From assembly GCA_041617155.1 (NCBI GenBank), contig JBFJPL010000010.1, positions 197 to 64,196 on the forward strand: a stretch of DNA of 64,000 nt. The letters run 5' to 3'. Below, piece by piece: positions 46,750 to 64,000 of the stretch. The first letter of the stretch is position 1, and each line of letters starts with the position of its first letter. This DNA is from Kiloniellales bacterium (lineage in GTDB: Bacteria > Pseudomonadota > Alphaproteobacteria > Kiloniellales > JAKSDN01). Position numbers and translations under genes: made by a program. A model generated the notes under the pieces. The model saw nothing but the letters and a program-made list of their open reading frames with translations, was not told the DNA's origin and did not search any database.

Positions 46750-47568
46750 TCAGCCGCCGCCTGCGGCCACGATCTCGCGCACCAGGGCGAGGTCGGAGAC
46801 CTTGTCGACATCGACCGGCGCGGTCGGGAAGGGCATTTGCACCACCGTGGCCCGCACCTTGATGGCCGCCGAGGCACGTCGCATCGCGGCCGACAGGGTC
46901 AGGCGGCCGAGCAGGAACAGGACCAGCGAGACGACGCCGAAGCTGGCGATCATGCGCCAGGGCTTCTTGCGGTGGCTTTCCGCACGGGCCCAGAAGCGCA
47001 CCGCCTGGAGCCCGGCCGGCCTTGTTAACGCGAAGAGGTTGCAGCCGGAAAAGCGTCCGTCGCGGAACCTCAGGTAGGTGCGTTCGGCGCCGGGAAAGGC
47101 GCTCTCGATCACCGATTTCGCCGCCAGGGCGGCGACCACGTCGGCGCCGGTCGCCTGAGCCTCGGCCAAGAAGTGCTCGATCATCTGAACCGTCACGAGC
47201 GGGTTGTCCGCCGTGGTGACGAGCAGGGGGGTGGGGCTCGCCAGGGCCTCGGTCGCCGCCAGTACGCTGCGGCTCGGAGTCGCGCCGCTGGTCAGGACCC
47301 TGACCTTGCCGGCCGCGACCGTCGCGCTGACCGCCGAAAGCTCGGTCAGCAACTCGGGCGCCTCGATCGAGATCACGATGTCGCCCACCGAGGGGCTCGC
47401 CAGCAGCGTCTCCAGAACCCGCACGACCATCGGCACGCCGGCGATATCGACCAGGCACTTGTGGCTCTTGCCCTCACTCAGCGCGACCGGGTCCGAGGCC
47501 CCGCGCGAGCCGGCCAGGACCAGGGCGGTGAAGACCTGGCCACCGGGGCTGCCGTCCTCCTTGCTCAC
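46750..47568 (-). CDS. MobA-like NTP-transferase-fold protein with C-terminal TM helix
   Basis: 272 aa. The GTG start overlaps the stop of the upstream GNAT gene (GTGA). Motifs LVLAGSRGASDP and TTADNPL are present. The TM helix is MIASFGVVSLVLFLLG. Confidence 0.8.
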   Translation of the reverse strand: MSKEDGSPGGQVFTALVLAGSRGASDPVALSEGKSHKCLVDIAGVPMVVRVLETLLASPSVGDIVISIEAPELLTELSAVSATVAAGKVRVLTSGATPSRSVLAATEALASPTPLLVTTADNPLVTVQMIEHFLAEAQATGADVVAALAAKSVIESAFPGAERTYLRFRDGRFSGCNLFALTRPAGLQAVRFWARAESHRKKPWRMIASFGVVSLVLFLLGRLTLSAAMRRASAAIKVRATVVQMPFPTAPVDVDKVSDLALVREIVAAGGG

Positions 47569-48767
47569 GCCAGCGCCTTTTCGTAGATCCGGTAGGTCTT
47601 GTAGGGCCGGCCGCCAGCCGTCTCGATGATGCTCTGGGCCTGCAGGTTGTCCTCGAGCACCCAGGAAAGCTCCGCGCTCTCAAAGCCGCGCCGGCGCAGG
47701 CCTTGGTGCGCCCGGTTGATCACCGCGAAGGCCAGGGCGGCGCCCAACGTGCCGCCCTGGAATTTTCGCCGCACGCCCATCAGCGGCATGCGGGCGGTGC
47801 GGATCTTGCCGGCTTTCAGGCGGTACAGCAGTTTGGCCCAGCCGAACGGCAAAAGCGCGCCGTCCAGATCGGCGATCGCCTCGTTAAGGTTCGGCAGGCC
47901 GACCGCGAAAGCCGCTGGCTCGCCCTCGACCTCGGCGATCGCGACGCATTCGGCATCGATCAGCGGCTTCAGGTCCTTGGCGACCTTGGCGATTTCGACC
48001 TGGGAGAAGGGGACGAAGCCCCAGTTGTTGGCCCAGGCGTCGTTGAAGATTCCCATGACCGCCTTCAGGTCCTCGTCGAACCGACGCATCAACAGCGGCC
48101 GGATGGTCAGGCCTGATTGCGCCTCGAGGCGACCGATCAGCCGTCGCGCGGACTCGGGCAGCGGGTCCCTGGCCATGTCGAATTCATAGGCGATGAGGTC
48201 GCGCACCTTGGCGTAGCCCAGGGCCTCCAGCCGTTCCGCGTAGTAGGGCCGCGCGTGTCCCATCATCAGCGAGGGCGGCCGCTCGAATCCCTCCACCAGA
48301 AGGCCGGACTCGTCGTTGATCGACAGGCTGAAGGGCCCGCGCACGCGCACCAGGCCGCGCTGGCGCAGCCAAGCCTCGGCGGTGCCGAGCAGCTGGGCGA
48401 ACACTTCCGCGTCGTCGATCGCCTCGAGGAAGCCAAAATGCCCGGTCGCGTCCTGGTGCTGGTTCAGCGCCGCCTGGTCGATCTGGGCGCTGATCCGGCC
48501 GACCGGCGTGCCGCCGCTGAGCGCCAGCCAAAGCTGCACCTCGGCGTGGCGGAAAAAGGGATTGGCCTTGCGGTCAAGGTGCTGGCGCCGTTCGAAGACC
48601 AGCGGCGGGACCCATTGGGAATCATCCCAGTAGATGCGCCAGGGAACCCTGATGAAGCGGTCGAGTGCCGCTTTGCCTTCGACCGGCAGGATCTCGACGG
48701 CGCCGGGCGCCGGCGCGCGCGCCGCGACCTGTTCCCGACCCGCTCCGCGCTTAGCCTGCTCAGGCAA
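47565..48767 (-). CDS. GNAT-fold N-acyltransferase, candidate bacterial ceramide synthase (bCerS-like)
   Basis: 400 aa (TTG start, AGAGGAG upstream). Motifs VPWRIYWDDSQWVPPL, NPFFRHAEVQLWLA, GRISAQID, GHFGFLEA and RGPFSLSINDESGLLVEGF are present. As far as I recall, this family is often mis-annotated as dATP pyrophosphohydrolase, and it includes the Caulobacter ceramide synthase. Confidence 0.7.
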   Translation of the reverse strand: MPEQAKRGAGREQVAARAPAPGAVEILPVEGKAALDRFIRVPWRIYWDDSQWVPPLVFERRQHLDRKANPFFRHAEVQLWLALSGGTPVGRISAQIDQAALNQHQDATGHFGFLEAIDDAEVFAQLLGTAEAWLRQRGLVRVRGPFSLSINDESGLLVEGFERPPSLMMGHARPYYAERLEALGYAKVRDLIAYEFDMARDPLPESARRLIGRLEAQSGLTIRPLLMRRFDEDLKAVMGIFNDAWANNWGFVPFSQVEIAKVAKDLKPLIDAECVAIAEVEGEPAAFAVGLPNLNEAIADLDGALLPFGWAKLLYRLKAGKIRTARMPLMGVRRKFQGGTLGAALAFAVINRAHQGLRRRGFESAELSWVLEDNLQAQSIIETAGGRPYKTYRIYEKALA

Positions 48768-48883
48768 TGTTATGACGCTCCTCTTCGCCGATCCGATCAG
48801 CCGCTGCAGCGGTTCCGTCGCCGCGCAGCACTATAGCGCCGAAAAAGTGATTCGGGGACCGTGCGGTGGCGCCCGGCGGCGGG

Positions 48884-49375
48884 CTATTGTCGCAGGGTGA
48901 TCTCCACGGTCGTACCGTTGGGGCCGACCGTAAAACGCGCTTCCTTGTGCTTCGGCGGCCCGAGGCGCAGGCCGGGATTGTTGGAGACGCCATAGGGCTC
49001 GGCCGGCAGTCCCAAGGCGTTCTTGTCGAACTTCCTGTTGCCGTTGACGTCGTGATAGAGGCCGATCGCGAAGACCCCTGGTCCCGGCACCGGCAGGCAC
49101 ATCTCGACGCTGCCGATGCGCGCCGGAACGCGAACCCGCACCAGTTTCTTCTTCTTTTTCAGGAACTCCTCCGGCTTGTCGCCGTGCAGGTCCGCGGTGA
49201 TCGTGCCCTTGGCCTTGCGCACGTTCTTGACGATGACACGGATCGCGCCGGCCTGTTCCTCGCAGGCCGCGGCGCGTGGTGTGGCGGCGCTTTGATCGAG
49301 GCCCGAGGCCGGCGCCGCCGAAGCGGGCAGGCCGACCGCCAATGCCAGCATCAAGCCTCTGAGTACGAATGTCAT
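48884..49375 (-). CDS. DUF2141-like secreted protein
   Basis: 163 aa with a signal peptide. Motifs HDVNGNRKFDKNALGLPAEPYGVSNN are present. Confidence 0.8.
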   Translation of the reverse strand: MTFVLRGLMLALAVGLPASAAPASGLDQSAATPRAAACEEQAGAIRVIVKNVRKAKGTITADLHGDKPEEFLKKKKKLVRVRVPARIGSVEMCLPVPGPGVFAIGLYHDVNGNRKFDKNALGLPAEPYGVSNNPGLRLGPPKHKEARFTVGPNGTTVEITLRQ

Positions 49376-49571
49376 CGATAGCCTGCCGTCGGTCCAGTTG
49401 GTGAAGCCGGGGTTGCCTCATCTTTATACGAAGCCTCGGGGCCTTACATCCACATTCCTTTGGTCGTCGCTTAAGGCGATCAGAAATACCTGTTTTCAAT
49501 CCGCCCGGCAGGCTAAACCTAAGCGGCCCGTTGCATCGCAGGTATCGCGCCCCGACCACGTTGCGAGCACT

Positions 49572-50759
49572 ATGTTCAAGACCCTAGACCGCTACGTTCT
49601 CCGGCAGATCATCGTCTCGTCGGCGGCGATGATCGGCATTGCCCTGATCGCTCTCCTGCTGGAGCGGTTGCTGCGGCTGCTCGGGCTGGCCGCCAATCCG
49701 GACCGGGTTCTGGGCTACATCTCGCAAATGCTGGTCTCGCTGATCCCGCACTACCTCGGGATCGCCCTGCCGTTGGCGTTCTTCCTCGGCATGATGCTGA
49801 CCTTCAACCGGCTTAGCCGCGACAACGAGCTGGCGGTGATGACCGCCGCCGGCAAGGGGCTGCAGCGGGTCATGGTGCCGGTTCTGGGCCTGGCCTTCGT
49901 ATTGACCGTCATCGCCGCCGTGACCTTCAGCTACCTTCAGCCGCTGGCCCGCTACACCTATCGCTCGCTGGCCCACACGGTGGTGCATGCGTCGCTCAAC
50001 GCGGCGGTAAAGGAGGCGACTTTCGTTCATGTCGATGGCCTGACCTTCATCGCCGAGAACGCCTCGGCGGACGGCGAGCAGCTCGGCAGGATTTTCGTCT
50101 ACGAGGAAAAGGCCGACGGCCGATCCTTCGTCACCACCGCGAGCCGGGGCACCTTGCGCGCTTCGAAACAAGGTCAGGGGCCGCTTCTGGTCCTGGACCA
50201 GGGCGAGCGGCTGGAGTTCCGTCCCGAACGCGGCGGCGCCGGTACCTTGGAGTTCAGCCGGTTCCAGTGGCCGATCACCCGCTCGTCGGACGCCGGGTTC
50301 CGGGCGCGCGGCAAGGACGAGAGGGAGCTCACCCTGTGGGAACTCTGGGCCGCCGCGAAGGCGCCGCCGCCGAAGATATCCGCGGCGGAGGCCATCGCCG
50401 AACTGCACGCCCGGCTGGTCAGCGTGCTGACCATACTGGTGCTGCCGTTCCTGGCGGTGCCCCTCTCGCTCGGCGGCGGGCGAATTGGCCAGTCCTACGG
50501 CATTGGCGTCGGGCTTCTGATCCTGGTGGTCTACGAGAAGGTGGTGACCTTCGGCGAGGCCATGGCGGAGAAGGGCGACATTACGCCCTGGCTCGCCATT
50601 TGGCTGCCTTTCGGCCTGTTTGCCCTGCTCGGCGGCTACCTCTTCTACCGGGCGGCCTACACGGTTTCCAGCGGCACGCTGGCCGGGTTGCCGGCGCCGC
50701 GCGACCTGTTCAAGCTGCTCGGCCGGCGCTTTCGCCTCAGGCACAGGCGCGCCACATGA
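49572..50759 (+). CDS. lptF: LptF/YjgP-family permease
   Basis: Part of ORF 49398..50759 with ATG at 49572. The sequence is MFKTLDRYVLRQI... It has six-TM architecture with a large periplasmic loop. Confidence 0.85.
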   Translation: MFKTLDRYVLRQIIVSSAAMIGIALIALLLERLLRLLGLAANPDRVLGYISQMLVSLIPHYLGIALPLAFFLGMMLTFNRLSRDNELAVMTAAGKGLQRVMVPVLGLAFVLTVIAAVTFSYLQPLARYTYRSLAHTVVHASLNAAVKEATFVHVDGLTFIAENASADGEQLGRIFVYEEKADGRSFVTTASRGTLRASKQGQGPLLVLDQGERLEFRPERGGAGTLEFSRFQWPITRSSDAGFRARGKDERELTLWELWAAAKAPPPKISAAEAIAELHARLVSVLTILVLPFLAVPLSLGGGRIGQSYGIGVGLLILVVYEKVVTFGEAMAEKGDITPWLAIWLPFGLFALLGGYLFYRAAYTVSSGTLAGLPAPRDLFKLLGRRFRLRHRRAT

Positions 50760-51829
50760 ACAGCCTGTTGAGCCGCTATCTGGCACGGCTTTTTCTGGCA
50801 CGGCTGTTGGTCATCCTGCTTGGCCTCGCGGCCCTGGTGCTTTTGCTCGACCTGCTGGCGAACAGCGACGAGATCATCGAGCGCGGCCGCGGCATCGCCG
50901 AAACGCTCGGCCGCTACAGCGTGCTGCGGTTGCCCGGCGTGCTGTCTCAGGTTATTCCCATCTCGGTCCTGCTGGCCACCTTGACGATGCTGGCCAGCCT
51001 GGCCCGGCATAGCGAACTGGTCGCGATCTTTGCCTCCGGCGTGTCCCACTTCAGGCTGATTCTCACCTTGTTGCCGGTCGCGCTGCTGGTTGCCGTGGTG
51101 CAGTACCTGGTCGAGGACTGGGCGCTGCCGCCGGCCAACGCGGCGCTTCGGGCCTGGGGTGTCGCCGACTTCGAGGACTTCGCCGCGAAAGACGATCAGG
51201 CGCGAACCTGGTTTCGACAGGGCGACAACTTCGTGTCGGTTCGCAAGATCTCCGGCGAGCAAGGGGATTTGTCCGGCATCGCCATCTTTCGCCGCAATGC
51301 CGAAGGCCGGCTGGTCGAAAAGATCGAGGCGGCGCGCGCCAGCTATGCCGCCGAAACCTGGGTTCTGGAGGATGTGGTCCGGAGCAATCCGGGCTCCACG
51401 AACAAGGTCACCGAGGCGCGTCTGGTTTGGCCCGGGGCGATCGAGAGCTCCGTGTTGCACCTGCTGTCCGTCCACCCGCGGGAGCTGCCCCGGGCGCAAC
51501 TGGTCCATCTGGTCGAGAAGAACGGCTACGGCAACCGGCCGCTCTATCTCTACAAGGTCTGGCTGCACAACAAGGTCGCCCGACCCTTCGCGACCATGGT
51601 ACTGGTCCTGGTCGGTATCGCGGCGGTGCAATGGGTCCATCCCCGGCGGCCGGCGGCCGGCATGCTGATCATTGGCATCGGGGTCGGGTTCATCTATTGG
51701 ATCTTCGACGAGTTCGTCGTGACGATCGGCGAAGCCGGGCTGCTGCCCGCCGTGATCGCGGCCTGGGCGCCGCCGATCATCCTGGCTGCTCTTGCCAGCG
51801 CCGTGATCCTGCGCCATGAGGGAAAGTAG
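50756..51829 (+). CDS. lptG: LptG/YjgQ-family permease
   Basis: Part of ORF 50267..51829. ATG at 50756 overlaps the lptF stop (ATGA). The sequence is MNSLLSRYLARLFLARLLV... Confidence 0.85.
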   Translation: MNSLLSRYLARLFLARLLVILLGLAALVLLLDLLANSDEIIERGRGIAETLGRYSVLRLPGVLSQVIPISVLLATLTMLASLARHSELVAIFASGVSHFRLILTLLPVALLVAVVQYLVEDWALPPANAALRAWGVADFEDFAAKDDQARTWFRQGDNFVSVRKISGEQGDLSGIAIFRRNAEGRLVEKIEAARASYAAETWVLEDVVRSNPGSTNKVTEARLVWPGAIESSVLHLLSVHPRELPRAQLVHLVEKNGYGNRPLYLYKVWLHNKVARPFATMVLVLVGIAAVQWVHPRRPAAGMLIIGIGVGFIYWIFDEFVVTIGEAGLLPAVIAAWAPPIILAALASAVILRHEGK

Positions 51830-51841: not shown

Positions 51842-52801
51842 ATGAAAATCGGATTGGTCAGCAATTGGCGAAGCCGGCGCAACAAGCGGGGTCTGCCGGT
51901 GCTGCCGGACACCAGGGTTTCGGGCGTCGAGATTCTGCATCGTCCGTTGGACGGGATCGTCGGCCTGGGCGACGTCTTGCGCGACTTCGCGGCGGCCGAG
52001 GTCGATATCCTCGCCGTCAATGGCGGCGACGGCACCGTCTCGGCCACCTTGAGCGAGCTGCTGCACCGCAATGCGTTCGACAAGCTGCCCCTTCTGGCGC
52101 TGCTGGGTGGCGGCACCACGAACATGACCGCCGCCGACGCGGGCCTGCGCGGCCCGGCGGCCAAGGCCTTGAGGCGCCTGGTCGCGCGGACCGCGCGCAA
52201 CGAACTCGAAGCCGTCACTGTCGAGCGTGACGTCATCCGGGTCGACTACCGGCCCGACCGGGCGCCGCTCTACGGCATGTTCTTCGGGACCGCCGCGATC
52301 TGCCGGGCGATTCAGCTGTGCCACGAGGTGTTTCATCCGATCAAGGTGGAATCCTCGGCCGCCGCCGGCGCGACCCTGGCCTACGTCTTCGCGTGCAGCC
52401 TGTTCGGCCGCACCGACAAGCATCGACTTATCCAAGGCGACCGAATGACCGTGCGCTTGGACGGCCGGGCCAGCGAAGAGGGCGAAAAGCTTTTGGCCCT
52501 GGTGACCACGCTGGACCGTTTGGTGCTGCGCTCCCGGCCGTTCTGGGGCAAGGAGGAGGGGGCGCTTCGATACATGAGCATCGCCCACCCGCCCTGGCGT
52601 CTGGGCCGCTCGGCCAGGCGCGTTCTGTACGGCGGCGCGGACCGCGGTTTGCCGCCGGAGCACTACGACAGTCACAACGCCGAGCGCATATCGTTCGAGA
52701 TGACCTGCCCCTTCACGCTCGATGGCGAGATCTTCGAACCGGCGCCGGACGTCCCGGTCGAACTGAGCTGCGGCGGGCGTCTGAGCTTTCTGCACAATTG
52801 A
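51842..52801 (+). CDS. Diacylglycerol-kinase-family lipid kinase (candidate ceramide kinase)
   Basis: 319 aa with ILAVNGGDGTV (DAGK catalytic domain motif) and LLGGGTTNM. It starts 12 nt after the lptG stop. Confidence 0.8.
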   Translation: MKIGLVSNWRSRRNKRGLPVLPDTRVSGVEILHRPLDGIVGLGDVLRDFAAAEVDILAVNGGDGTVSATLSELLHRNAFDKLPLLALLGGGTTNMTAADAGLRGPAAKALRRLVARTARNELEAVTVERDVIRVDYRPDRAPLYGMFFGTAAICRAIQLCHEVFHPIKVESSAAAGATLAYVFACSLFGRTDKHRLIQGDRMTVRLDGRASEEGEKLLALVTTLDRLVLRSRPFWGKEEGALRYMSIAHPPWRLGRSARRVLYGGADRGLPPEHYDSHNAERISFEMTCPFTLDGEIFEPAPDVPVELSCGGRLSFLHN

Positions 52802-52806
52802 GAGCC

Positions 52807-53760
52807 ATGATGAAACGACAAAAGGCTGTCCGGGAGGTGATCGCGGCCGAGTTGGGCCAGCCGGTGTCCGACAGCGTCAAGGCCGCGGCGGCCGAGATCC
52901 GCCGACGTCACCGGGCGGCCGTCGCCGGCTGCCTGTTTTACGGTTCCTGTCTCAGGGAAGGCCGCGACCAGGGCCGGGTGATCGATTTCTACGTGCTCAC
53001 CCAGGACTACCGGCAGTTCCATGGCCGGCGCTTGCCGGCGATGCTGAACGCCCTTTTGCCGCCGAACGTCTATTACCTGGAGACCGAGTCCGACGGCCAA
53101 GTGGTCAGGGCCAAGTACGCAGTGATTTCGCTCGAGGATCTGGTCCAGGACACCTCGGCTTCCGCCTTTCTCTCGACCCTCTGGGGTCGTCTGTCGCAGC
53201 CCTGCGCGTTGGTCTACGAGCGCGACCAGCAGGTCCGCCGGGCGGTCGCCGCCGCGCTGGGTGCCGCGGTCGAAACCATGACGACGGAGACGCTGCCGCT
53301 GCTGCCGCGCGAATTTAGCGCCCGCGACCTCTGGACCCGGGCGTTTGCCGAAAGCTATCGCACCGAATTGCGGTCGGAACGCACGAACCGTCCAGCCGAG
53401 CTCTATCAAAGCTATGCCGCGCGCTACGACCGCGTGACGACGGCCATGCTGGCCGGATCACACATCGGGTCGGAGCCGGAGGCTTCGGACCCGCCGCGGT
53501 TCCGTCATGCGGCCGACGGCGGCAAACGCGGCGGCGCCGAACGACGATGGTGGCGCCGGCGCGTGGCCGGCAGGGCGGTCCATGTGCTGCGGCTCTGCAA
53601 GGCCGCCTATACCTTCACGGACGGCCTTGACTACATACTCTGGAAGATCGAACAGCACTCCGGCGTGCGCACCGAGCCGACGGCGTGGCAGCGGCGCCAT
53701 CCGCTCCTCGCGGCGCCGGGTCTGGCTTGGCGGCTCTATCGCCGCCGGGCCATCCGGTGA
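52807..53760 (+). CDS. Tam41/Mmp37-like nucleotidyltransferase (candidate lipid-phosphate cytidylyltransferase)
   Basis: Part of ORF 52318..53760; ATG at 52807 lies 5 nt after the kinase stop. The segments LFYGSCLREG...VIDFYVLTQDYRQFH, PPNVYYLE and KYAVISLEDLVQD....LWGRLSQP parallel the conserved blocks I recall for mitochondrial CDP-DAG synthase Tam41 (YGSGVF..D.IF.V.D...WH, GVYYN, KYGVIS...L..DL..W..LY.AGRLQKP). Confidence 0.65.
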   Translation: MMKRQKAVREVIAAELGQPVSDSVKAAAAEIRRRHRAAVAGCLFYGSCLREGRDQGRVIDFYVLTQDYRQFHGRRLPAMLNALLPPNVYYLETESDGQVVRAKYAVISLEDLVQDTSASAFLSTLWGRLSQPCALVYERDQQVRRAVAAALGAAVETMTTETLPLLPREFSARDLWTRAFAESYRTELRSERTNRPAELYQSYAARYDRVTTAMLAGSHIGSEPEASDPPRFRHAADGGKRGGAERRWWRRRVAGRAVHVLRLCKAAYTFTDGLDYILWKIEQHSGVRTEPTAWQRRHPLLAAPGLAWRLYRRRAIR

Positions 53761-53785: not shown

Positions 53786-55024
53786 CTAGACCCGCTCTTC
53801 GGCCACCCGGCGCAAAGGGAAGGCCTCGGCCGCCTCATAGGCGCGCATATCTTCCGCGACCATCGCAAAGGCTTCGGCGATCCGCTCGATCTGCGCCGGC
53901 GTGTGTGCCGCGGACGCACTGCAGCGCAGCAGCGAGGTGCTGTTTGGCGTACCCGGCGGGATCGCCAGGTTCACGTAGACGCCCGCCGCGATCAGCTTGT
54001 TCCAATACATCACGGCCTGGTCTTGGCTCGGGATCTTGACCGCGATGATCGGGCTGGCCGGCGCCGCCAGGGTCAGACCGAGATCGCTCAGCCGATCGTA
54101 AAGCGCGTGCGCATTGCGCCACAGCGTTTGCCTTAGTGACGGGTCGCTCGAGATCCGCCGCAGCGCCGTGGTTACCGAGGCGACGTTGGCCGGCGAGAGC
54201 GACGCCGTGAACATGTAGGGCCGACTGGCGAAGCGCAGATAGGGGAATTTCGGATGGTCCGAGGCGCAGAAGCCGCCGATCGAGCCCAGGCTCTTGCTGA
54301 AGGTACCGACGATGAAATCGACATCCTCCAACACGCCGGCATGCTCCGCCACGCCGCGGCCATGCTCGCCGAACACGCCGACCGAGTGCGCCTCGTCGAC
54401 GTAGAGGTAGGCGCCGTACTTGCGCTTGATCTCGGCGAACTCCGCCAGCGGCGCGATATCGCCGAACATGCTGTAGAGGCCTTCGACGATGATCAGCTTG
54501 TTGCCGCCGCCGCCGTCCAGGCGCTGTAGGCGCTTTTCCAGGTCGCTCGGCGAATTGTGCCGGAAGCGGATCACCGTGGCGCCGGTCATGCGGCAGCCGT
54601 CGTAGATGCAGGCGTGGCAATCGGCGTCCAACAGGATGTAGTCGTCCGGACCGGCGATCGCCGAGATCACGCCGAGGTTCGCCTGATAGCCGGTCGGGAA
54701 CACCATGGCCGAACCGAAATCGAAGAAAGACGCGATCTCTTTCTCGAGCGTGCGGTGTTCGGTATAGGTGCCGTTGGCGATGCGCGAACCGGTCGTGCCG
54801 GTGCCCAAACGCTCCAGCGCATCTTGTGCCGCGTCGACGCACTCGCGATCGAAGGTCAGGCCGAGATAGTTGTTGGTTCCCGCCAGCACGACTTTCCGCC
54901 CGCCGATGATGGCTTCCGTCGCGTGCCGCATTTCGTCCATGCACACGCCGAAAGGATCCTGTCCTGCGGCGACGATCTGTTCGTGCAGCGCGGGCAAGCC
55001 GGCCATTTTGTCAAAGAGATCCAT
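53786..55024 (-). CDS. spt: Serine palmitoyltransferase (alpha-oxoamine synthase family)
   Basis: Part of ORF 53786..55075 with ATG at 55024. It is collinear with the Sphingomonas SPT sequence as I recall it: DPFGVCMDE, GTNNYLGLTFD, GTTGSRIANGT, VDEAHSVG, the PLP-lysine motif GTFSKSLG and LLRCSASAAHTPAQI. Confidence 0.9.
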   Translation of the reverse strand: MDLFDKMAGLPALHEQIVAAGQDPFGVCMDEMRHATEAIIGGRKVVLAGTNNYLGLTFDRECVDAAQDALERLGTGTTGSRIANGTYTEHRTLEKEIASFFDFGSAMVFPTGYQANLGVISAIAGPDDYILLDADCHACIYDGCRMTGATVIRFRHNSPSDLEKRLQRLDGGGGNKLIIVEGLYSMFGDIAPLAEFAEIKRKYGAYLYVDEAHSVGVFGEHGRGVAEHAGVLEDVDFIVGTFSKSLGSIGGFCASDHPKFPYLRFASRPYMFTASLSPANVASVTTALRRISSDPSLRQTLWRNAHALYDRLSDLGLTLAAPASPIIAVKIPSQDQAVMYWNKLIAAGVYVNLAIPPGTPNSTSLLRCSASAAHTPAQIERIAEAFAMVAEDMRAYEAAEAFPLRRVAEERV

Positions 55025-55028
55025 GTTC

Positions 55029-55280
55029 CTACTGGGCCCCCGCTTGTTTGTGGATGGCTCGGACAAGATCCCCAACTGTCCGAATTTCCGATAACAGGTT
55101 CATCGGAAAGGAGATGCCATACTCGTCCTCTACTTCCATGATCAGATCGAGCACAGCCACTGAATCAATCTCCAAGTCTCCCGTGATATCGGTTTCGCCT
55201 GTCAGCTCTAGGTTTCTGACATTGAATTGCTGCAGCTTCTGGCAGACTTTGCGTAAAACCAGATCGTCCGCGACGTCCAT
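55029..55280 (-). CDS. Dedicated acyl carrier protein
   Basis: Part of ORF 55029..55370 (GTG); ATG at 55280 gives 83 aa. The phosphopantetheine site context is GDLEIDSVAVLDLIMEVE. It ends 4 nt before the spt start. The local G+C is noticeably lower. Confidence 0.85.
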   Translation of the reverse strand: MDVADDLVLRKVCQKLQQFNVRNLELTGETDITGDLEIDSVAVLDLIMEVEDEYGISFPMNLLSEIRTVGDLVRAIHKQAGAQ

Positions 55281-56625: not shown

Positions 56626-58356
56626 TCAATTCTGAGGGGCGGCAAAAAATCCGGAAAGGTAGCGAACCTTGGTGAAGCTGCGGCTGATCTTGCCTGACGA
56701 GGTGAGCGGCAGGCTGCGAACCGGCGCCAGCACGACCTTGGTGTCGACGCCGACGGACTTGCGCACGATCGTCGCGATCTCGTTTGCCAGGGTCGCGCGC
56801 TCCTCCTCCTCCCGGCTTCTGCATTGGACGACGGTGACGACTTCCTCGCCGTTCTCCGGCGATTCCACCGAGAAAGCCGCGACGTCGCCGTTCTTTATGC
56901 CGGCCAGGCGTTCAACCGCCCACTCGATGTCCTGAGGCCAGATGTTTCGGCCGTTGCAGATGATCAGATCCTTGGCGCGCCCGGTGATGACCAGTGAACC
57001 GTCGATCATATAGCCCAGGTCGCCGGTGTCGAGCCAGCCGTCTTCCGAAAGCACGGCGGCGGTCTTCTCCGGGTCCTGGAAGAAGCCGCTCATCAGGCTC
57101 GGCCCTTTGACCATAACCCGCCCGACCTGACGATCGGGTAGCAGCGTGCCGTCCTCGTCCCTGATCTCGATTTCGTGCCCGCCCATCGCCGTGCCGCAGA
57201 GCACCAGGGAGCGCGCGTCCTCGACCGGCGTGTCGGCCGTCGCCGGCACCGCTTTGCCGCTCCGGGCCAGCTCGCGCTTGTCGATCCGGTCGGTCTCGAA
57301 CTCCTCGGCCAGGGGCGCGAAGCTGACCGCCAGGGTGGATTCGGCCAGGCCGTAGCTCGGCACGAAGGCCGAGCGCTTGAATCCGAACTCCTTGAAGGTC
57401 TCCGCGAATCGGTTGAGCACGCCCGCGCGGACCATGTCGCCGCCGATGCCGGCGACCCGCCATGCCGAGAGGTCGAGCGAAACTTCCGAACCGTTGCTGC
57501 CCCGGCGCTGGCACAGGTCGTAGCCGAAGGAGGGGCTGAAAGCCAAGGTGCCGCCGTTCTCGGAGAGCAGCCGCAGCCACAGCAGGGGACGCCGGGCGAA
57601 GTCCGAGGTGGCGAGGTAGTCGATCGAAAGCTGTGACAGCATGGGACAGATGCTGAATCCGACCAAACCCATGTCGTGGTACAGCGGTAACCAGCTGGTG
57701 CAGCGGTCGCCCTCGCGGGCGTCCAGGCCGTGAATCATGATCGCCCGGCAGTTGCTGGTGATCGAGCGCTGCGAGATGACGATGCCCTTGGGGTCGCTCG
57801 TGCTGCCGGAGGAGTATTGAATGTAGGACGGATCGTCCGGGCCCGCCGGCCGCGGGTCGGGGCCTTCGGGCAGGGCGCAGAACTCCTCCGGGGTGCCGGC
57901 CATCGCGACTTCGAACCCCTCGAGCGCCTCGCGCAACATGCCGATCATGTGGGTCGATGCCACGGCCGCCGCCGGCAGGGCCGAGCCGATCATGCGCCGG
58001 ATCTGCTGAAGGTAGGCCTCCTTGGCGCCGAGGTTCATCGGCACGGGCAGCTGCATCGGAAGCAAGCTGGCGTACTGGCAGGCATAGAAGAAGCGGTGGA
58101 AATCGGGCGTCGTCTCGGCCACCAGAGCGACGCGGCTGCCCGGCTCCAGCCCGAGCTTGATGAGCTTTCGAGCCAGAGAAATCGCGTCTTCGCGCATTTC
58201 GGCGTAGCTCAGACTGGCCTGAAGCTCACCCCTGATCGAGTAGAAGTTGCAGCCGGCCTCGCCCTTGGCGGCATAGTCGAGCCCCTCGGCGAGTGTTTCG
58301 AATTTTCCGCGCATGAACGGCAGGGAGCTGGAGGATGTCGGCGTGGGGCGTTGCAT
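56626..58356 (-). CDS. Fatty acyl-AMP ligase / acyl-ACP synthetase
   Basis: 576 aa with the AMP-binding motif YIQYSSGSTSDPKG, plus TGDLGY and the C-terminal SSGKISR. Confidence 0.9.
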   Translation of the reverse strand: MQRPTPTSSSSLPFMRGKFETLAEGLDYAAKGEAGCNFYSIRGELQASLSYAEMREDAISLARKLIKLGLEPGSRVALVAETTPDFHRFFYACQYASLLPMQLPVPMNLGAKEAYLQQIRRMIGSALPAAAVASTHMIGMLREALEGFEVAMAGTPEEFCALPEGPDPRPAGPDDPSYIQYSSGSTSDPKGIVISQRSITSNCRAIMIHGLDAREGDRCTSWLPLYHDMGLVGFSICPMLSQLSIDYLATSDFARRPLLWLRLLSENGGTLAFSPSFGYDLCQRRGSNGSEVSLDLSAWRVAGIGGDMVRAGVLNRFAETFKEFGFKRSAFVPSYGLAESTLAVSFAPLAEEFETDRIDKRELARSGKAVPATADTPVEDARSLVLCGTAMGGHEIEIRDEDGTLLPDRQVGRVMVKGPSLMSGFFQDPEKTAAVLSEDGWLDTGDLGYMIDGSLVITGRAKDLIICNGRNIWPQDIEWAVERLAGIKNGDVAAFSVESPENGEEVVTVVQCRSREEEERATLANEIATIVRKSVGVDTKVVLAPVRSLPLTSSGKISRSFTKVRYLSGFFAAPQN

Positions 58357-58659: not shown

Positions 58660-60378
58660 TCAAAGCGAAGTGGCTTGAGGTTCGGCTTCCGGCGTGACGG
58701 CGAAACGATCGGCGCCCAGTTCGTAGACCCGGTCGGCCGCGTCGAGCCACGCCGGCCGGTGGGTGATCGCCAGGATCGTGACAGAGTCCGCCAGACTGCG
58801 GATATTGCGGCAGATCGCCGCTTCGGTTTCCGGGTCGAGCGCGGAGGTCACCTCGTCCAGGATGAGCAGCGCGGGATTATGGACCAGGGCGCGGGCCAGG
58901 GCGATCCGCTGGCGCTGGCCGCCCGAGAGCCTGGCGCCGCGTTCGCCGACCAGCGTCATCATGCCCTCCGGCAGGGCGGAGACGAACTCCCAGGCATCCG
59001 CGGCTTCGAGCGCGGCCTGCGCCTGCTCGGCGCTGAACGAGTTGTCGCCGAGCGTCACGTTGGCCAAGACCGTATCGTGGAAGAGTATGAGCTCCTGGGG
59101 CACATAGCCGATCATTGCGCGCCAGGCATGGAGATCGACCTGTTCCAGCGGCACGCCGTCAATCAGAATTTCGCCCTCGTCCGGCCGGTAAAGCCCCAGC
59201 AGGAGATCGGTCAAGGTGGTCTTGCCGACACCGGACGCGCCCATGATCACGGTCACCTTGTTGGCCGGCACCTCCATCGAGATGTTCTCCAGGACCTGGT
59301 TGTCGCCGAACGCGAAGGAGATGTCGTGCATAGTGCAGCCTTCGTTCAAGGTCGGATGCTGTGTGCCGTGCACCACCTCGCGTTCCAGCTTGGATTGGTC
59401 GACCAGCTTGTGGATCGCCCAGTAGGCGCTTTCGACGATCGACGCTTCCTGCAGCAGTTTCTGAATGCGGTTGACCCGCGACACCGTGCGTTGCAGCACG
59501 AGCCCCATGACAAACAACTCGGTGAGCGGCTGCTGCAGAAACCGGACCGCCAGATAAAAGCCGACCACCAGGCACAACGTCAAGATCGGTTCCTGCAGGT
59601 TGCGCATCAGCTGGGTGCTGAGGGTTTGCCGCCGCAAAGCCTGTCTCAGGTCGTCGATCTTGTTTTCGAACAGCTGGGCGAAATGGCCTTGCCGGCCCAT
59701 GGCCTTGAGCGGCTTGATGCCAACGAGCGCGTCGCTCAAGTGCACCACAAGCTCCTGCGTGCGCTTGGTCTGCCGCCGGCCCGCCTTCCTGGCGGTTCGC
59801 ACCATGGAGCTGAGCAGGAGGGCGATCAGTCCGCCGATCAGCAGCGCGACCAGCGCCAGTTGCCACGACAGCAACAAGGCCACGGCGATATAGACCGCGC
59901 ATTGCACGATGCTCGCGATGAACTGAACGGCCAGGACAAAGGCTTGGGCTGAACGCGATGCTTCGAAACTGACCGCATTGGCCAGTCGGCCGACCGGTTG
60001 GCCGATGAAAAAACTCCACTTCGCGCGCATCAGGTTGTCGATCAGCTTGGTGCGCAACTCGGTCGCGACCTCCGCCGCGGCGTAGCCGACATGGCGCATG
60101 GCCAGGAGGCTGAGGCCGGATTTCAGGACTATACCGCCCAGCACCACGAGAATCAGGATTTCGAGGTTGGCCGGCAGGCCGAGGCGATCCAGAGATTCGA
60201 AAATGACCTTGCTGGCCGTCGATGTTCCGCCGTCGGACCCTGCGCCGGCGACGGACAGCAGCGGCAGCAGGCTGGTCAGGCCGATCCCCTCGGCCAGGCC
60301 GGCCAGCAGCAGCAGGCCGAGAACGGTCCAACGGATCCGCGCCTTGGTGGCGAAAAAGATGCCTAGTACACCGCGCAT
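58660..60378 (-). CDS. ABC exporter, fused permease-ATPase (MsbA-like)
   Basis: Part of ORF 58660..60456 with ATG at 60378. It has a six-TM N-terminal half. Walker A is GASGVGKTT, the signature is LSGGQRQRIALARAL, and LILDEVTSALD is present. Confidence 0.9.
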   Translation of the reverse strand: MRGVLGIFFATKARIRWTVLGLLLLAGLAEGIGLTSLLPLLSVAGAGSDGGTSTASKVIFESLDRLGLPANLEILILVVLGGIVLKSGLSLLAMRHVGYAAAEVATELRTKLIDNLMRAKWSFFIGQPVGRLANAVSFEASRSAQAFVLAVQFIASIVQCAVYIAVALLLSWQLALVALLIGGLIALLLSSMVRTARKAGRRQTKRTQELVVHLSDALVGIKPLKAMGRQGHFAQLFENKIDDLRQALRRQTLSTQLMRNLQEPILTLCLVVGFYLAVRFLQQPLTELFVMGLVLQRTVSRVNRIQKLLQEASIVESAYWAIHKLVDQSKLEREVVHGTQHPTLNEGCTMHDISFAFGDNQVLENISMEVPANKVTVIMGASGVGKTTLTDLLLGLYRPDEGEILIDGVPLEQVDLHAWRAMIGYVPQELILFHDTVLANVTLGDNSFSAEQAQAALEAADAWEFVSALPEGMMTLVGERGARLSGGQRQRIALARALVHNPALLILDEVTSALDPETEAAICRNIRSLADSVTILAITHRPAWLDAADRVYELGADRFAVTPEAEPQATSL

Positions 60379-60570
60379 CGCGTTTGCAGTTCCGTGATTT
60401 GCCCGTTCAGCTGCCCGGACGGGGCGCCCCGCTTCTTGCTCGCCGCAGGCTAACAAATCGCTGGTTTAGGGCTTCCTAACAGACTTCCCAATGTGACTCC
60501 AGTCGACTTTGGCCGGCATCGGCGCGGCGTGCGAGGCCGTAGGCGCCGTCCGATCGCCGGACCGCGGCTC

Positions 60571-61104
60571 TCAGCGGACCGGCCAGAGACCGCGCAAGTG
60601 CGCGATCAATGCCTTTCTTTGGCCCTGGTCCAGCTCGGTGTGGGCCCCCAGGTTGGGCAACGCCGGCCAGCCGGGATCATCGAAGGAAACGCCGCCGAAC
60701 GCGCGGGGCTCGGCATATCTGGGCAGCACATGGAAATGGACGTGAGGGTCGACCATCATGAGCATGAGGTAGTTGATCTTGTCGTAGGCGAAGGCCTTGC
60801 CCAGGGTGGTTTCGATATCGGCGGTCACGGTACCGAGGTTGTCGAACGCCGGCTGGCCGATGGCCGCAAAGGCCGTTGCCGGTTGCTTGCAGGCCAGGAC
60901 CAGGGCGCCCAGCGTGGCTTGCTGCGGGCGCAAGAGGATTACCCAGTGGTCGTAGTCCGCCAGCAGCGTCTCGGGATAGCCGAACTTGGCGATGGTCTGG
61001 TTCGCGGCCGGTGACGTGGCGGTTGGCTCGGACAACGGATCTCTCCAAACGAATGTCGGAACGTCGGCCGCCGGTCTATGCGCCGCTGTGCGGACGACGG
61101 CCAA
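60571..61104 (-). CDS. HIT-family nucleotide hydrolase/transferase
   Basis: 177 aa (TTG start, N-terminus uncertain). The histidine triad is HVHFHVLPR. Confidence 0.75.
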   Translation of the reverse strand: MAVVRTAAHRPAADVPTFVWRDPLSEPTATSPAANQTIAKFGYPETLLADYDHWVILLRPQQATLGALVLACKQPATAFAAIGQPAFDNLGTVTADIETTLGKAFAYDKINYLMLMMVDPHVHFHVLPRYAEPRAFGGVSFDDPGWPALPNLGAHTELDQGQRKALIAHLRGLWPVR

Positions 61105-61307
61105 ATCTAGCCGTCACGGCCGCCAATCGCAAAGCCCATGCCGTGGCGGCATTTGCATTCGCCGCCAAATCGATTATGTACCCACGGCAGTAAATCGAAG
61201 TGACCGGCGGCCTGGAGCGCCAGCGCGGCGCCCGCCTGCCGCGACAGCTTTGGAGTTCGGCGTTGGTGCAGACAAGCGATTCGGCGCGGGGTAGAGCGCC
61301 CGGCCTT

Positions 61308-62453
61308 ATGGTGATCGGCCAGTGTGATACCAAGATCTGGGGATTGGCGCCGGGCGAACGCCATATCCGCGCCTTCGCACGGGCCGGCGTATCCTCGCTC
61401 GTCAAGACCAGCGAGCCGGCTCCGGCCGAGGGTTCCGTGGTCATGATCCGGGCCGAATACGTGATCGCTGAGGAACTGGTCCGCGCCCTGGTGGAAACGC
61501 CCGGCGTGATCCTGGCGGTCGAGGGGCGGCGCGCCGGCGAGAAGCTCGCCGTCGCGGCCCACGCGGAGGCGGCCGATGCCGAGGCGGTCGCCGCGTTCCT
61601 GACGCGCGGCGCCTTCGGCCCGGACGATTCGGCACCCAGGGGCTTGCGCGTTCTGGGACCTGGCGAAATCGGCTCCCAGTACAATCAGATGCTGCGCAAG
61701 CGGATGGTTCCCTTCGTGCTGTCGCTGGCCGACCAGCCGCTCGCCGAGATCGAGAAAACGACCTTCAGCGCGGTCTACAAGGGCTCGACCGACTTCGTCA
61801 CCAAGTGGTGCTGGCCGTTGCCCGCGCGCTGGGCCACGCGCTGGGCGGCCGCCTGGCACATCACCCCCAACACGATCACGACGGTCAGCCTGGTGTTCGT
61901 CGTCCTGGCGACCTATCTCTTCGCCCAAGGTGATTTTCTGGCCGGCGTCGCGGCGGCCTGGTTCATGACCTTCCTGGACACGGTCGACGGCAAGCTGGCC
62001 CGGGTGACACTGACCTCCTCCAAGTGGGGCAATCTCTACGACCACGGCATCGATCTGATCCACCCGCCGTTCTGGTGGGGCGCGTGGTGGTTCGGCCTCA
62101 AGGGCGTGAGCGATCCGGCCCTGCAGTCCTCGCTCGACCTGGCGCTCTGGATCATCCTGGTCGGCTATGTCGCCGGCCGCCTGTTGGAGGGCGTTTTCCT
62201 CTGGAGCTTCAAGATCCAGACCCATATCTGGCGCCCGGTCGACCACTACTTCCGTACGATCACCGCCCGGCGCAATCCCAATCTGGCGATCATGATGGTC
62301 GGTGCGCTGTTCGGCCGCCCCGATCTCGGCTTCCTGGCGGTCGCCGGCTGGACCGTGTTCTGCCTGCTGTTCCATGCCGTGCGCGTCCTGCAGGCGCTGG
62401 CCGTCCACACGCGCGGCGGGCGGATCAGCTCCTGGCTGAAGGAGCCGGGCTAG
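61308..62453 (+). CDS. CDP-alcohol phosphotransferase with about 190-aa N-terminal cytoplasmic domain
   Basis: Part of ORF 61200..62453 (GTG) with ATG at 61308. The full family signature D-x2-DG-x2-AR...G-x3-D-x3-D is present as DTVDGKLARVTLTSSKWGNLYDHGIDLIH. The C-terminal half is multi-TM. Confidence 0.85.
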   Translation: MVIGQCDTKIWGLAPGERHIRAFARAGVSSLVKTSEPAPAEGSVVMIRAEYVIAEELVRALVETPGVILAVEGRRAGEKLAVAAHAEAADAEAVAAFLTRGAFGPDDSAPRGLRVLGPGEIGSQYNQMLRKRMVPFVLSLADQPLAEIEKTTFSAVYKGSTDFVTKWCWPLPARWATRWAAAWHITPNTITTVSLVFVVLATYLFAQGDFLAGVAAAWFMTFLDTVDGKLARVTLTSSKWGNLYDHGIDLIHPPFWWGAWWFGLKGVSDPALQSSLDLALWIILVGYVAGRLLEGVFLWSFKIQTHIWRPVDHYFRTITARRNPNLAIMMVGALFGRPDLGFLAVAGWTVFCLLFHAVRVLQALAVHTRGGRISSWLKEPG

Positions 62454-62723: not shown

Positions 62724-62730
62724 GGAAAAG

Positions 62731-63441
62731 ATGTCGGGCGACCAGCCACCAGACGAATCCGCAGGCGGGCCGGCGCGGCCCGTGGCGGTGGTCTTCGACC
62801 TCGACCGGACGGTCACCAAGTGGGGCACCTTCACGCCGTTCCTGCTGTTCGCGGCACGCGGCCGGCCCTTGAAATTTCTTCTGATCGGGCCGCTTCTGGT
62901 CGCCGCCCTGGGCTACAAGCTGGGCCTGATCAGCCGCGGGCGACTCAAGGAAATCATGCTCACATCCGTGCTCGGCGGGGCGACGCGCGACGAGGTGGCG
63001 GCGCTTTCCGCGGCCTTCGTCGAACGGCGCGTAAACTGCGGCTTGCGGCCGGGCGCGCTGCGGGCCATCGCCGAACATAAGGCCAAGGGCTGTTATTTGA
63101 TCCTTGCAACGGCGAGTTTCGAATTCTATGTAGAGCGCTTGGGGCATCAGCTGGGCTTCGATAGGGTTGTCGCCACCCGGTCTCTTTGGGACGAGGGAGG
63201 GCGTCTCGTCGGACGGATCGATGGCGAGAACTGCTACGGGGCGGAAAAGCTGAGGCGCTTGGAAGAAGCTCTGCCCGATTTGAGCGCACGTTATCGGGTG
63301 GTCGCCTATTCCGACAGCCACGCTGATGAGCCGCTGCTCCGTTGGGCGGATATCGGCATTGCCGTGAATCCGACACGAAAACTACGCAGACGTGCAAAAG
63401 CGGGGAATTTCGAGCTTGTGGACTGGAACAGCACAGCGTGA
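62731..63441 (+). CDS. HAD-IB family phosphatase (SerB-like)
   Basis: 236 aa with motif I VVFDLDRTV, ILATAS, and motif IV YSDSHADEPLL. Confidence 0.85.
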   Translation: MSGDQPPDESAGGPARPVAVVFDLDRTVTKWGTFTPFLLFAARGRPLKFLLIGPLLVAALGYKLGLISRGRLKEIMLTSVLGGATRDEVAALSAAFVERRVNCGLRPGALRAIAEHKAKGCYLILATASFEFYVERLGHQLGFDRVVATRSLWDEGGRLVGRIDGENCYGAEKLRRLEEALPDLSARYRVVAYSDSHADEPLLRWADIGIAVNPTRKLRRRAKAGNFELVDWNSTA

Positions 63442-63552
63442 TCGCCAACGGCTGCGCCGCCGCCGTTCCGGTCACAAAGTTTACACAACTTAATCAACCC
63501 TTAACCCGCCACACCCCATCTATTCGACCCCTAGCGATATTGGATAGGCAGA

Positions 63553-64000
63553 ATGAAAGCAGTGATCTTGAGTGCGGGCCAGGGCTCTCGCCTGCTGCCC
63601 TTGACCGAAGACCGTCCGAAATGCCTGCTTCCGATCAACTCGTCCCGCCTGATCGAGCTTCAGGTCCAGAACTTGGTCGCTTGCGGCATCGACGAAGTCG
63701 CCGTGGTCGTCGGTTTTCGGGCCGCCGCGGTCGAGACGTTCCTCGACGTCTTCCGGCGCGCCGGGCTGGCCATCCGTACCCTGTTCAATCCCTTTTTCAA
63801 TGTCGCCGACAACCTGGCGAGCTGCTGGATGGCGCGCGATGAAATGGACCGGGATTTCATTCTGCTGAACGGCGATACGCTGTTCGAGCCGGCGGTGCTC
63901 GACGAGCTGCTGAACGCGCCGCCGGCGCCGGTGACCTTGGCGATCGACCGCAAGGCGGCCTATGATTCCGACGACATGAAGGTGCGGCTCGACGGCTCCC
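63553..64000 (+). CDS. Nucleotidyltransferase (cytidylyltransferase-like, LicC/IPCT-type), 3' end beyond window
   Basis: Hand translation from ATG at 63553 gives MKAVILSAGQGSRLLPLTEDRPKCLLPI...ILLNGDTLF. This is the G-x-G-x-R-L...K NTP-transferase signature. The frame stays open to the window edge. Confidence 0.85.
   Translation, partial: MKAVILSAGQGSRLLPLTEDRPKCLLPINSSRLIELQVQNLVACGIDEVAVVVGFRAAAVETFLDVFRRAGLAIRTLFNPFFNVADNLASCWMARDEMDRDFILLNGDTLFEPAVLDELLNAPPAPVTLAIDRKAAYDSDDMKVRLDGS

Follow-up and report, generated by a model that had tools for sequence, protein, structure and literature searches.

Caulobacter makes two phosphosphingolipids, ceramide phosphoglycerate (CPG) and ceramide diphosphoglycerate (CPG2) (PMC9393093), and has, in C. 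crescentus, a cluster of 17 genes for them, CC_1152-CC_1168 (= CCNA_01210-01226) (PMC11324152, S1 Text). Ceramide synthesis takes five genes, aasR, cerR, acpR, spt and bcerS (PMC11324152), and six further genes within CC_1152-CC_1168 are needed to turn ceramide into CPG and CPG2 (PMC11324152; PMC9393093). The protein accessions of the Caulobacter ceramide module are ACL94677 and ACL94685-94688. The subject here is a locus of 16 genes, also of the ceramide-lipid type, in a 64,000-nucleotide stretch of DNA from a Kiloniellales bacterium (contig JBFJPL010000010.1, positions 197 to 64,196; this whole stretch is called the window below), in which it begins at 46750 and reaches to about 64300 (~17.5 kb). 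To judge from its genes, the locus probably serves to make and export an anionic phosphosphingolipid like the CPG/CPG2 of Caulobacter, and our confidence that the lipid is ceramide-based is higher still.

The functions of the Caulobacter genes have been shown genetically, and for CpgB and CpgD also biochemically (PMC11324152; PMC12275187; PMC9393093). CpgD (CC_1152; PF00483, PF01128 and PF12804) makes CDP-glycerate from CTP and phosphoglycerate, and a Met/Lys pair in it contacts the glycerate (PMC12275187). CC_1153 is a MobA/CobY/CofC-like protein (PF12804) encoded next to bcerS and is required for CPG2; CC_1155 and CC_1156 are LptG2 and LptF2 (PF03739 each), CC_1157 has a HIT motif and was judged to be probably unrelated to phosphosphingolipid synthesis, and CC_1158 is a calcineurin-like phosphoesterase that is dispensable for CPG2 and missing from several published clusters (PMC11324152, with S1 Text). 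CpgA (CC_1159; PF01066 and an N-terminal cytoplasmic domain) adds the second phosphoglycerate, CpgB (CC_1160) is a kinase of the diacylglycerol/sphingosine type, CpgC (CC_1161, Tam41) is needed for the step from ceramide-1-phosphate to CPG, and CC_1166 and CC_1168 are a Wzx-like flippase and LptC2, respectively (PMC11324152, with S1 Text). LptF2 and LptG2 form a complex and bind LptB, and their genes can be deleted only if spt or cpgB is absent (bioRxiv 10.64898/2026.04.12.717747).

Thirteen of the 16 genes in the window have a one-to-one counterpart in Caulobacter, namely aasR, cerR, acpR, spt, bcerS, CC_1153, cpgA-D, CC_1157, lptF2 and lptG2, and in both genomes spt, acp, cerR and aasR stand together as a block, with bcerS next to the MobA-like gene as a pair. 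They differ in that the window has an ABC exporter upstream of aasR and no Wzx-like CC_1166, has a HAD-IB phosphatase after cpgA and no phosphoesterase of the CC_1158 type, and has an added gene for a secreted DUF2141 protein; the order of the modules differs as well. The ABC exporter, the DUF2141 protein and the HAD phosphatase are thus, by their sequences, the three genes outside the published Caulobacter set. A preliminary description of this DNA had listed the same genes, and all of them were found again at the same coordinates and in the same domain families, as open reading frames supported by third-position G+C (GC3) and Pfam. It had also taken the genes around the ceramide core to be extra and unassigned, which does not hold for the kinase (CpgB), the Tam41-like protein (CpgC), the CDP-alcohol transferase (CpgA), the cytidylyltransferase (CpgD), CC_1153, CC_1157 or LptF2/G2, all of them among the 13 that match published Caulobacter genes. 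The possibly undescribed phospho-sphingolipid that it proposed is probably not one, as the predicted product is the CPG/CPG2 described in 2022-2026.

Because the G+C content of the window is high (~66%), GC3 was used to choose the coding frames; domains were assigned with Pfam and NCBIfam. From left to right the genes are:

46750..47568, minus strand: MobA-like nucleotidyltransferase, counterpart of CC_1153 (Pfam NTP_transf_3, 59.6 bits)
47565..48767, minus strand: bCerS candidate of the CC_1154 type, a GNAT-fold N-acyltransferase of 400 residues (Pfam Acetyltransf_1)
48884..49375, minus strand: secreted DUF2141 protein, a beta-sandwich (Pfam DUF2141, 100 bits)
49572..50759, plus strand, start possible from 49398: LptF-family permease, LptF2 (CC_1156) (Pfam LptF_LptG, 234 bits)
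50756..51829, plus strand, 4-base overlap with lptF: LptG-family permease, LptG2 (CC_1155 type) (Pfam LptF_LptG, PF03739, 243.8 bits)
51842..52801, plus strand: DAGK-type lipid kinase, candidate ceramide kinase CpgB (CC_1160 type) (Pfam DAGK_cat, 35.9 bits; GGDG motif)
52798..53760, plus strand: Tam41/Mmp37-like protein, CpgC (CC_1161 type) (Pfam Tam41_Mmp37, 36 bits, cutoff 24)
53786..55024, minus strand: Spt, serine palmitoyltransferase (Pfam Aminotran_1_2; NCBIfam NF047599)
55029..55280, minus strand: AcpR-type acyl carrier protein of 83 residues (Pfam PP-binding, 42.6 bits)
55583..56524, minus strand: CerR-type reductase (SDR) of the NAD(P)-dependent epimerase/dehydratase family (Pfam Epimerase, 99.8 bits)
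56626..58356, minus strand: AasR-type fatty acyl-AMP ligase/acyl-ACP synthetase (Pfam AMP-binding, 174.5 bits)
58660..60456, minus strand, likely start ATG 60378: half-size ABC exporter (transmembrane domain followed by nucleotide-binding domain) of a HepA/PglK/MsbA-like subfamily (Pfam ABC_membrane and ABC_tran)
60571..61104, minus strand: nucleotide hydrolase/transferase of the HIT family, CC_1157 type (Pfam HIT, 21.5 bits, equal to the cutoff; HVHFHVL, motif HxHxHxx)
61200..62453, plus strand: CDP-alcohol phosphotransferase of 417 residues, CpgA (CC_1159 type) (Pfam CDP-OH_P_transf, PF01066, 38.1 bits, residues 221-325)
62731..63441, plus strand: HAD-IB phosphatase, where a calcineurin-like phosphoesterase of the CC_1158 type is usual (Pfam HAD, 113 bits)
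63553..64000, plus strand, cut by the window end, 252 residues in a fragment of the same species: cytidylyltransferase, CpgD (CC_1152 type) (Pfam NTP_transferase, NTP_transf_3 and IspD)

The locus was compared with 80 spt-centred loci with 10-kb flanks, one genome per species, which are the closest 80 of at least 599 spt-positive genomes; they cover Alpha-, Gamma- and Deltaproteobacteria, Nitrospirota and Calditrichota, with no Caulobacter among them, and were searched with all proteins of the window. Of these loci, 48 measure at least 18 kb; they all come from other genomes and are called full loci below, and a gene is counted in them when it lies within 10 kb of spt.

The alpha-oxoamine synthase at 53786..55024 is, from its sequence, a serine palmitoyltransferase (SPT). 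It scores 626 bits against the NCBIfam SPT equivalog (cutoff 500) and stays under the NCBIfam cutoffs of the sister enzymes (BioF 334 against 426, Kbl 309 against 460, 5-aminolevulinate synthase (ALAS) 237 against 339). The closest solved structures are the Sphingomonas SPTs (S. wittichii SPT 2x8u, 429 bits; 2jg2, 420 bits), and the sister enzymes score lower (Kbl 216 bits, cysteate acyltransferase 182, BioF ~160). The lysine that binds pyridoxal phosphate, K244 in TFSKS, is invariant in an alignment of 17 sequences, and identity to the nearest named relatives (Pelagibius, Kiloniellaceae, Geminicoccaceae, Rhodovibrionaceae) is ~60-65%. Next to spt, the carrier protein has its phosphopantetheine site DSV with the serine intact, CerR has the motifs GATGFIG (GxxGxxG) and YAASK (YxxxK), and AasR scores 774 bits against NF006624 (cutoff 600). 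An acyl carrier protein (ACP) gene lies directly upstream of spt in 70 of the 80 loci, and the block spt-acp-cerR-aasR, adjacent in the window, is found in 41-46 of the 48 full loci. The bCerS protein matches Acetyltransf_1 weakly (23.4 bits, cutoff 20.7) and gave no NCBIfam match and no PDB match (0 hits); relatives are present in 42 of the 80 spt loci, with a median identity of 54%, and synteny and the literature make it a candidate bacterial ceramide synthase. All five gene types of the ceramide module (aasR, acpR, spt, cerR, bcerS) are present in the window, and the sequences argue that this five-gene core is genuine and of the Caulobacter type. The SPT-like call and the five-gene core of the preliminary description are both borne out, the former by the SPT model, which is passed where those for BioF, Kbl and ALAS are failed, and by the nearest structures, the latter by the presence of all five genes in the same adjacency.

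The head-group genes agree with the Caulobacter set in family and in motif, and catalytic motifs are intact in translations across the locus, DxDxT and Walker A/B included. The bcerS stop and the GTG start of the MobA-like gene overlap as GTGA, in line with the translational coupling proposed earlier for this pair, and the MobA-like gene lies downstream of the bCerS gene in 25 of the 28 full loci that have it. The cpgB-like and cpgC-like genes are adjacent and overlapping, and are paired in 31 of the 48 full loci. The CpgA-like protein, whose gene is found in 24 of the 80 spt loci, has an N-terminal extension of ~200 residues and an intact DTVDGKLAR-x8-G-x3-D-x3-D motif of the DxxDGxxAR type; its best NCBIfam matches are archaetidylinositol-phosphate synthase (44 bits) and phosphatidylinositol-phosphate (PIP) synthase (42 bits), both far below cutoff. 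The cytidylyltransferase resembles inositol-1-phosphate and phosphocholine cytidylyltransferases, and the CpgD entries cited in a 2026 preprint gave no match in the copy of PDB that was searched. Its residues G9, R13, K23, N87, N106-G107-D108, M142 and K156 follow the order and, with near-identical spacing, the positions of the published CpgD residues G12, R16, K26, N90, N110-G111-D112, M147 and K161, a correspondence that is one of spacing only.

Both borders of the locus can be placed. None of the five genes that precede 46750 (38.5-46.6 kb) has a match in any spt locus, and the left border is therefore put at 46750. To the right, a fragment of the same species (L001) continues with the complete cytidylyltransferase followed by O-antigen-type sugar-nucleotide genes, so that the locus ends about 300 bases beyond the window. 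The left neighbours (a DUF2868 gene, a DUF3482 GTPase, PhyH and an FAD monooxygenase) are ruled out as members (0 of 80 spt loci); the DUF3482-domain GTPase and the DUF2868 protein form a same-strand pair directly left of the locus (43760-46653), likewise found near spt in 0 of the 80. The genes of the locus form four transcription-direction units in two divergent pairs, DUF2141-bcerS-mobA-like against lptF2-lptG2-cpgB-cpgC, and HIT-ABC-aasR-cerR-acpR-spt against cpgA-HAD-cpgD. An Rfam scan of 46-64 kb gave no regulatory RNA, and promoter and terminator scans of the locus stayed at background level.

The genes around the core recur near spt in other genomes, as the counts in the 48 full loci show: CerR 46, AasR 46, ACP 41, LptF 35, LptG 34, DAGK 33, Tam41-like 32, GNAT 30, MobA-like 27, HIT 22, CDP-alcohol transferase 19, cytidylyltransferase 14, DUF2141 14, ABC 10 and HAD 1. 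Several of them form pairwise modules (numbers of full loci with both genes, with one, with the other and with neither, uncorrected for phylogeny): CpgB-CpgC 31/2/1/14, CerS-MobA-like 25/3/5/15, HIT-CpgA 18/4/1/25 and CpgA-metallophosphoesterase 18/1/9/20. Gene orders vary widely among the loci, so the linkage is more than inherited synteny. The preliminary description had the neighbouring lipid genes belong with spt, and this check of neighbourhood conservation supports it: the accessory genes recur in the 80 loci and the five left neighbours do not. A de novo census of open reading frame families in the same 80 loci added a calcineurin-like metallophosphoesterase of the CC_1158 type (35), a fatty-acid hydroxylase (26), an Elm1-like protein (12) and a Wzx-like flippase of the CC_1166 type (6); none of these four families is present in the window.

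The right-hand part of the locus varies among close relatives. The closest genome representative (L005, Spt 74% identical) has kept the left half, from spt to the MobA-like gene and including DUF2141, and in the 6.8 kb upstream of its aasR there is no ABC, HIT, cpgA, HAD or cpgD. Two metagenome contigs (L089 and L090, with ABC proteins 88% and 68% identical) have kept the order HIT-ABC-aasR. With these genes missing in the one and kept in the others, the right-hand module seems to be mobile between close relatives.

Three other explanations have to be weighed. The first keeps the ceramide core and gives the lipid another head group, e.g. ceramide phosphoinositol or phosphoglycerol, by a logic like that of PgsA/PgpC or of PIP synthase and phosphatase: the Tam41-like protein would make CDP-ceramide, the CDP-alcohol phosphotransferase would couple a phosphorylated alcohol to it, and the HAD protein would remove the terminal phosphate. 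The weak resemblances of the transferase, the cytidylyltransferase and the HAD protein to PIP and archaetidylinositol-phosphate synthases, inositol-1-phosphate cytidylyltransferases and PgpC fit such a scheme, as does a phosphatase gene that is nearly always found beside the transferase gene, just as a synthase/phosphatase pair would look (a metallophosphoesterase in 22 of 24 cases, HAD in the window and in L039), and even in Caulobacter CpgA and CpgC are still without an assigned biochemical role (PMC11324152; PMC12275187). The same resemblances are, however, found in Caulobacter CpgA ('PgsA domain') and CpgD (whose top structural hit is an inositol-1-phosphate cytidylyltransferase), and yet CPG2 and CDP-glycerate are what is made (PMC12275187; PMC9393093). 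The Met and Lys with which CpgD contacts glycerate have counterparts at matching spacing, Pfam finds no inositol-phosphate synthase or glycerol-phosphate gene in the locus, and the set of cpgA-D, CC_1153 and HIT is complete. We therefore regard another head group as unlikely.

A second explanation would link only the five core genes, and make lptFG, the kinase, the transferases, ABC, HIT and HAD housekeeping genes for lipopolysaccharide (LPS) and phospholipids that happen to be neighbours. LptF and LptG do score above the curated cutoffs for LPS permeases (LptF 252.6 bits against 230 for TIGR04407, LptG 258.4 against 240 for TIGR04408), the ABC exporter resembles MsbA and HepA, and the pair may be the only lptFG of the genome. 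The flanking genes nevertheless recur near spt in dozens of genomes of different classes and with different orders, which the true left neighbours do not, close relatives of the ABC exporter lie beside sphingolipid genes in most independent metagenome contigs (18 of 24), and Caulobacter either needs the counterparts for CPG/CPG2 or tolerates their deletion only without spt (PMC11324152; bioRxiv 10.64898/2026.04.12.717747), so that chance neighbourhood is a very improbable explanation. Hardly credible at all is the third, that the alpha-oxoamine synthase is BioF, Kbl or another acyltransferase, such as the cysteate acyltransferase of sulfonolipids, and that the locus makes an amino lipid other than a sphingolipid. 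The enzymes do belong to one family dependent on pyridoxal phosphate (Pfam Aminotran_1_2), with detectable similarity to BioF, Kbl and cysteate-C-fatty acyltransferase, but the SPT equivalog is passed with 626 bits against 500, the models of the sister enzymes are failed, and solved SPTs match at 420-429 bits against 216 for Kbl.

A locus for CPG/CPG2 thus remains the explanation that we prefer, and a number of points weigh against it. The head group is deduced from gene content alone, and the HAD phosphatase could alter the final one. The assignment of 13 of 16 genes to Caulobacter counterparts was made from domain family, motif, residue spacing and neighbourhood and not from reciprocal best hits, and some of the family matches are weak (bCerS 23 bits, HIT at its cutoff, CpgC 36 bits). 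The 64-kb window lacks counterparts of CC_1158, LptC2 (CC_1168), CC_1167 and the Wzx-like CC_1166, and the pathway is therefore no exact copy of that in Caulobacter. There is no second lptFG pair within the window, and the LptF and LptG found here may be second copies or the only LptFG of the organism. The p-values for co-occurrence, finally, ignore shared ancestry.

Among the three genes outside the Caulobacter set is that of the ABC exporter, which would work like other lipid-exporting half-transporters. Its membership in the MsbA or HepA families is ruled out by scores below the curated cutoffs (HepA family 306 against 725, MsbA TIGR02203 257 against 602, NF008381 226 against 867). Relatives with 40-58% identity occur in 17 of the 80 spt loci, either next to aasR or immediately behind spt. 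The exporter is found in loci of Dongiaceae and Geminicoccaceae MAGs (L035, L036, L047) and also in a cultured strain, Benzoatithermus flavus (L082), in whose 21-kb locus no cpg or lptF2/G2 genes were seen. When the question is turned around and metagenome contigs are searched for relatives of the exporter, 18 of 24 with at least 40% identity and at least 6 kb of flanking DNA adjoin sphingolipid genes, and none of the six with less than 40% identity does so. The close relatives without this linkage, about a quarter, lie in clusters with NeuB, glycosyltransferase or sulfotransferase genes. A strictly sphingolipid-specific exporter is thereby rejected, and given these other clusters the family looks like one of flippases for lipid-anchored polar groups that are frequently recruited to spt loci. 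A Wzx-like gene takes the ABC slot upstream of aasR in four of the six loci that have one (L058, L068, L070 and L081, among them two Azospirillum and one Niveispirillum), and the two types of flippase are never found in one locus (0/10/5/33), which is not significant (p = 0.57). The common position upstream of aasR is what makes the ABC exporter a candidate replacement for the Wzx-like flippase. It may be that this ABC subfamily is the missing inner-membrane flippase for sphingolipids in many bacteria, in place of the Wzx-like CC_1166; our literature search gave no paper that ties an ABC exporter to bacterial sphingolipids.

In ten loci from Deltaproteobacteria, Nitrospirota and Calditrichota (L031, L051, L053, L061, L062, L071, L073, L074, L078 and L080), spt is followed by an ABC exporter and/or by a NeuB-type nonulosonic acid synthase and an SDR gene. 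This arrangement is a hint that the sphingolipids of these taxa may carry sugars of a sialic-acid-like kind.

The DUF2141 protein has a signal-like N-terminus and two near-invariant cysteines, C38 and C93. Fifteen of the 80 spt loci have its gene; gene order varies among them, and LptF2 is always present too (14 of 14 full loci). Distant homologues in Erythrobacter and one other genome adjoin cpgC-like and cpgB-like genes with no spt nearby. The AlphaFold2 model (pLDDT 82.5) gave generic beta-sandwich matches only in a Foldseek search of PDB (e.g. CBM20; best E-value 0.012), and as no resemblance to LptA or LptC was seen there, the fold gives no support to the protein as an analogue of LptC2. 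We found no paper in the literature that connects DUF2141 with bacterial sphingolipids. It is possible that the LptF2G2 route has this protein as one of its periplasmic parts. A further locus (L087, 16073-17283) has a fatty-acid hydroxylase gene and, immediately behind it, a second, shorter DUF2141 gene, 6 kb from its first DUF2141-cpgC-cpgB group.

The HAD phosphatase scores 118.8 bits against TIGR01490 (cutoff 98.3) and has a weak match to PgpC (36 bits). Only one of the 80 other loci has the gene, L039, and there the order cpgA-HAD-cpgD is that of the window. The usual phosphatase in this place is the metallophosphoesterase, which is present in 22 of the 24 loci with CpgA, at most 270 bases from cpgA in 15 of them, and one further locus is truncated; a tblastn search for a calcineurin-like metallophosphoesterase of the CC_1158 type found none anywhere in the window. 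To judge from the sequences, it seems that one phosphatase has been displaced here by another, non-orthologous one. The HIT gene co-occurs with CpgA, as given above, and with the metallophosphoesterase (20/2/7/19 in the 48 loci), in both cases with phylogeny ignored. The reaction of CpgA may include, as an integral part, a phosphatase step that is usually carried out by a calcineurin-like enzyme and here by HAD-IB, with the HIT protein in the same CPG2 module.

The pathway that we propose begins with AasR, which would load a fatty acid onto its dedicated carrier AcpR; this has been published for Caulobacter and is argued here from homology and synteny. On the same grounds, Spt would make 3-oxosphinganine from acyl-AcpR and serine, bCerS would N-acylate it, and CerR would then reduce the product to dihydroceramide. 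By analogy with Caulobacter, CpgB would phosphorylate ceramide to ceramide-1-phosphate, the Tam41-like CpgC would be needed to turn this into CPG, CpgD would make CDP-glycerate from CTP and phosphoglycerate, and CpgA would use the CDP-glycerate in adding the second phosphoglycerate that gives CPG2. The MobA-like transferase and the HIT protein would act in this CPG2 module. For export we follow the model of the Caulobacter preprint, in which LptF2/LptG2 would extract the lipid from the inner membrane for the outer membrane, powered by the housekeeping LptB. Three steps are proposed here only: the ABC exporter would act as inner-membrane flippase for the lipid or for an intermediate, instead of the Wzx-like CC_1166, the HAD-IB phosphatase would do the job of CC_1158, and the secreted DUF2141 protein would be a periplasmic accessory. 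The combined hypothesis, with the ABC exporter as the sphingolipid flippase, DUF2141 as the periplasmic partner of LptF2G2, and a phosphatase step (HAD here) integral to CpgA with HIT in the CPG2 module, is a tentative one, and we would put its chances somewhat below even.

Elsewhere in the window there are genes for two phospholipases, one patatin-like (7036-8271) and the other a Tle1-like effector of type VI secretion (10342-12048). Beside the effector lies an unassigned open reading frame for 547 residues (12099-13742), which could encode an immunity or partner protein.

With this locus, the published clusters of the CPG2 type reach into an uncultured lineage of Alphaproteobacteria, a result that confirms more than it surprises. 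The census of 80 loci shows that the cluster is modular and widespread in Alpha-, Gamma- and Deltaproteobacteria, Nitrospirota and others. How sphingolipids pass the inner membrane and the periplasm is an explicit open question (bioRxiv 10.64898/2026.04.12.717747), for which the ABC subfamily and DUF2141 are testable candidates, if modest leads, and the exchange of metallophosphoesterase for HAD together with the tight co-occurrence of HIT and CpgA points to undefined steps in the chemistry of CPG2.

Among known systems, IPCT/DIPPS (for di-myo-inositol phosphate), TagD/TagF and PgsA/Pgp share with the locus a soluble cytidylyltransferase that makes a CDP-activated polar group, a membrane CDP-alcohol phosphotransferase that passes the phospho-group to an acceptor, and an adjacent phosphatase gene; they differ in that the acceptor here would be a phosphoceramide derivative and the donor CDP-glycerate, and the similarity is weak (15-54 bits). 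The likeness to LPS export by MsbA and LptB2FGC is one of layout, with an ABC half-transporter that flips an anionic outer-membrane lipid and an LptFG-type pair that extracts it, and the LptF and LptG found here do pass the curated models. In contrast to LPS export, however, a sphingolipid and not lipid A is the proposed cargo, the scores of the ABC exporter lie below the cutoffs of the MsbA models, and there is no lptB, lptC or lptA in the locus. Closer are the contiguous clusters of the CPG2 type in Azotobacter vinelandii, Pseudomonas luteola, Nitrosomonas eutropha, Hyphomonas neptunium and Sphingomonas wittichii (PMC11324152, Fig 7, S2 Table). Their ortholog tables, with identities of roughly 25-57% in S2 Table, span the counterparts of the 17 Caulobacter genes only, and are hence silent on ABC, DUF2141 and HAD. 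CC_1158 is absent in all five, and the beta- and gammaproteobacterial clusters among them also do without CC_1166-1168, as the window does. Like the window, all five have the ceramide core together with cpgA-D, CC_1153, HIT and lptF2G2, and for them too CPG/CPG2 is the predicted product (PMC11324152).

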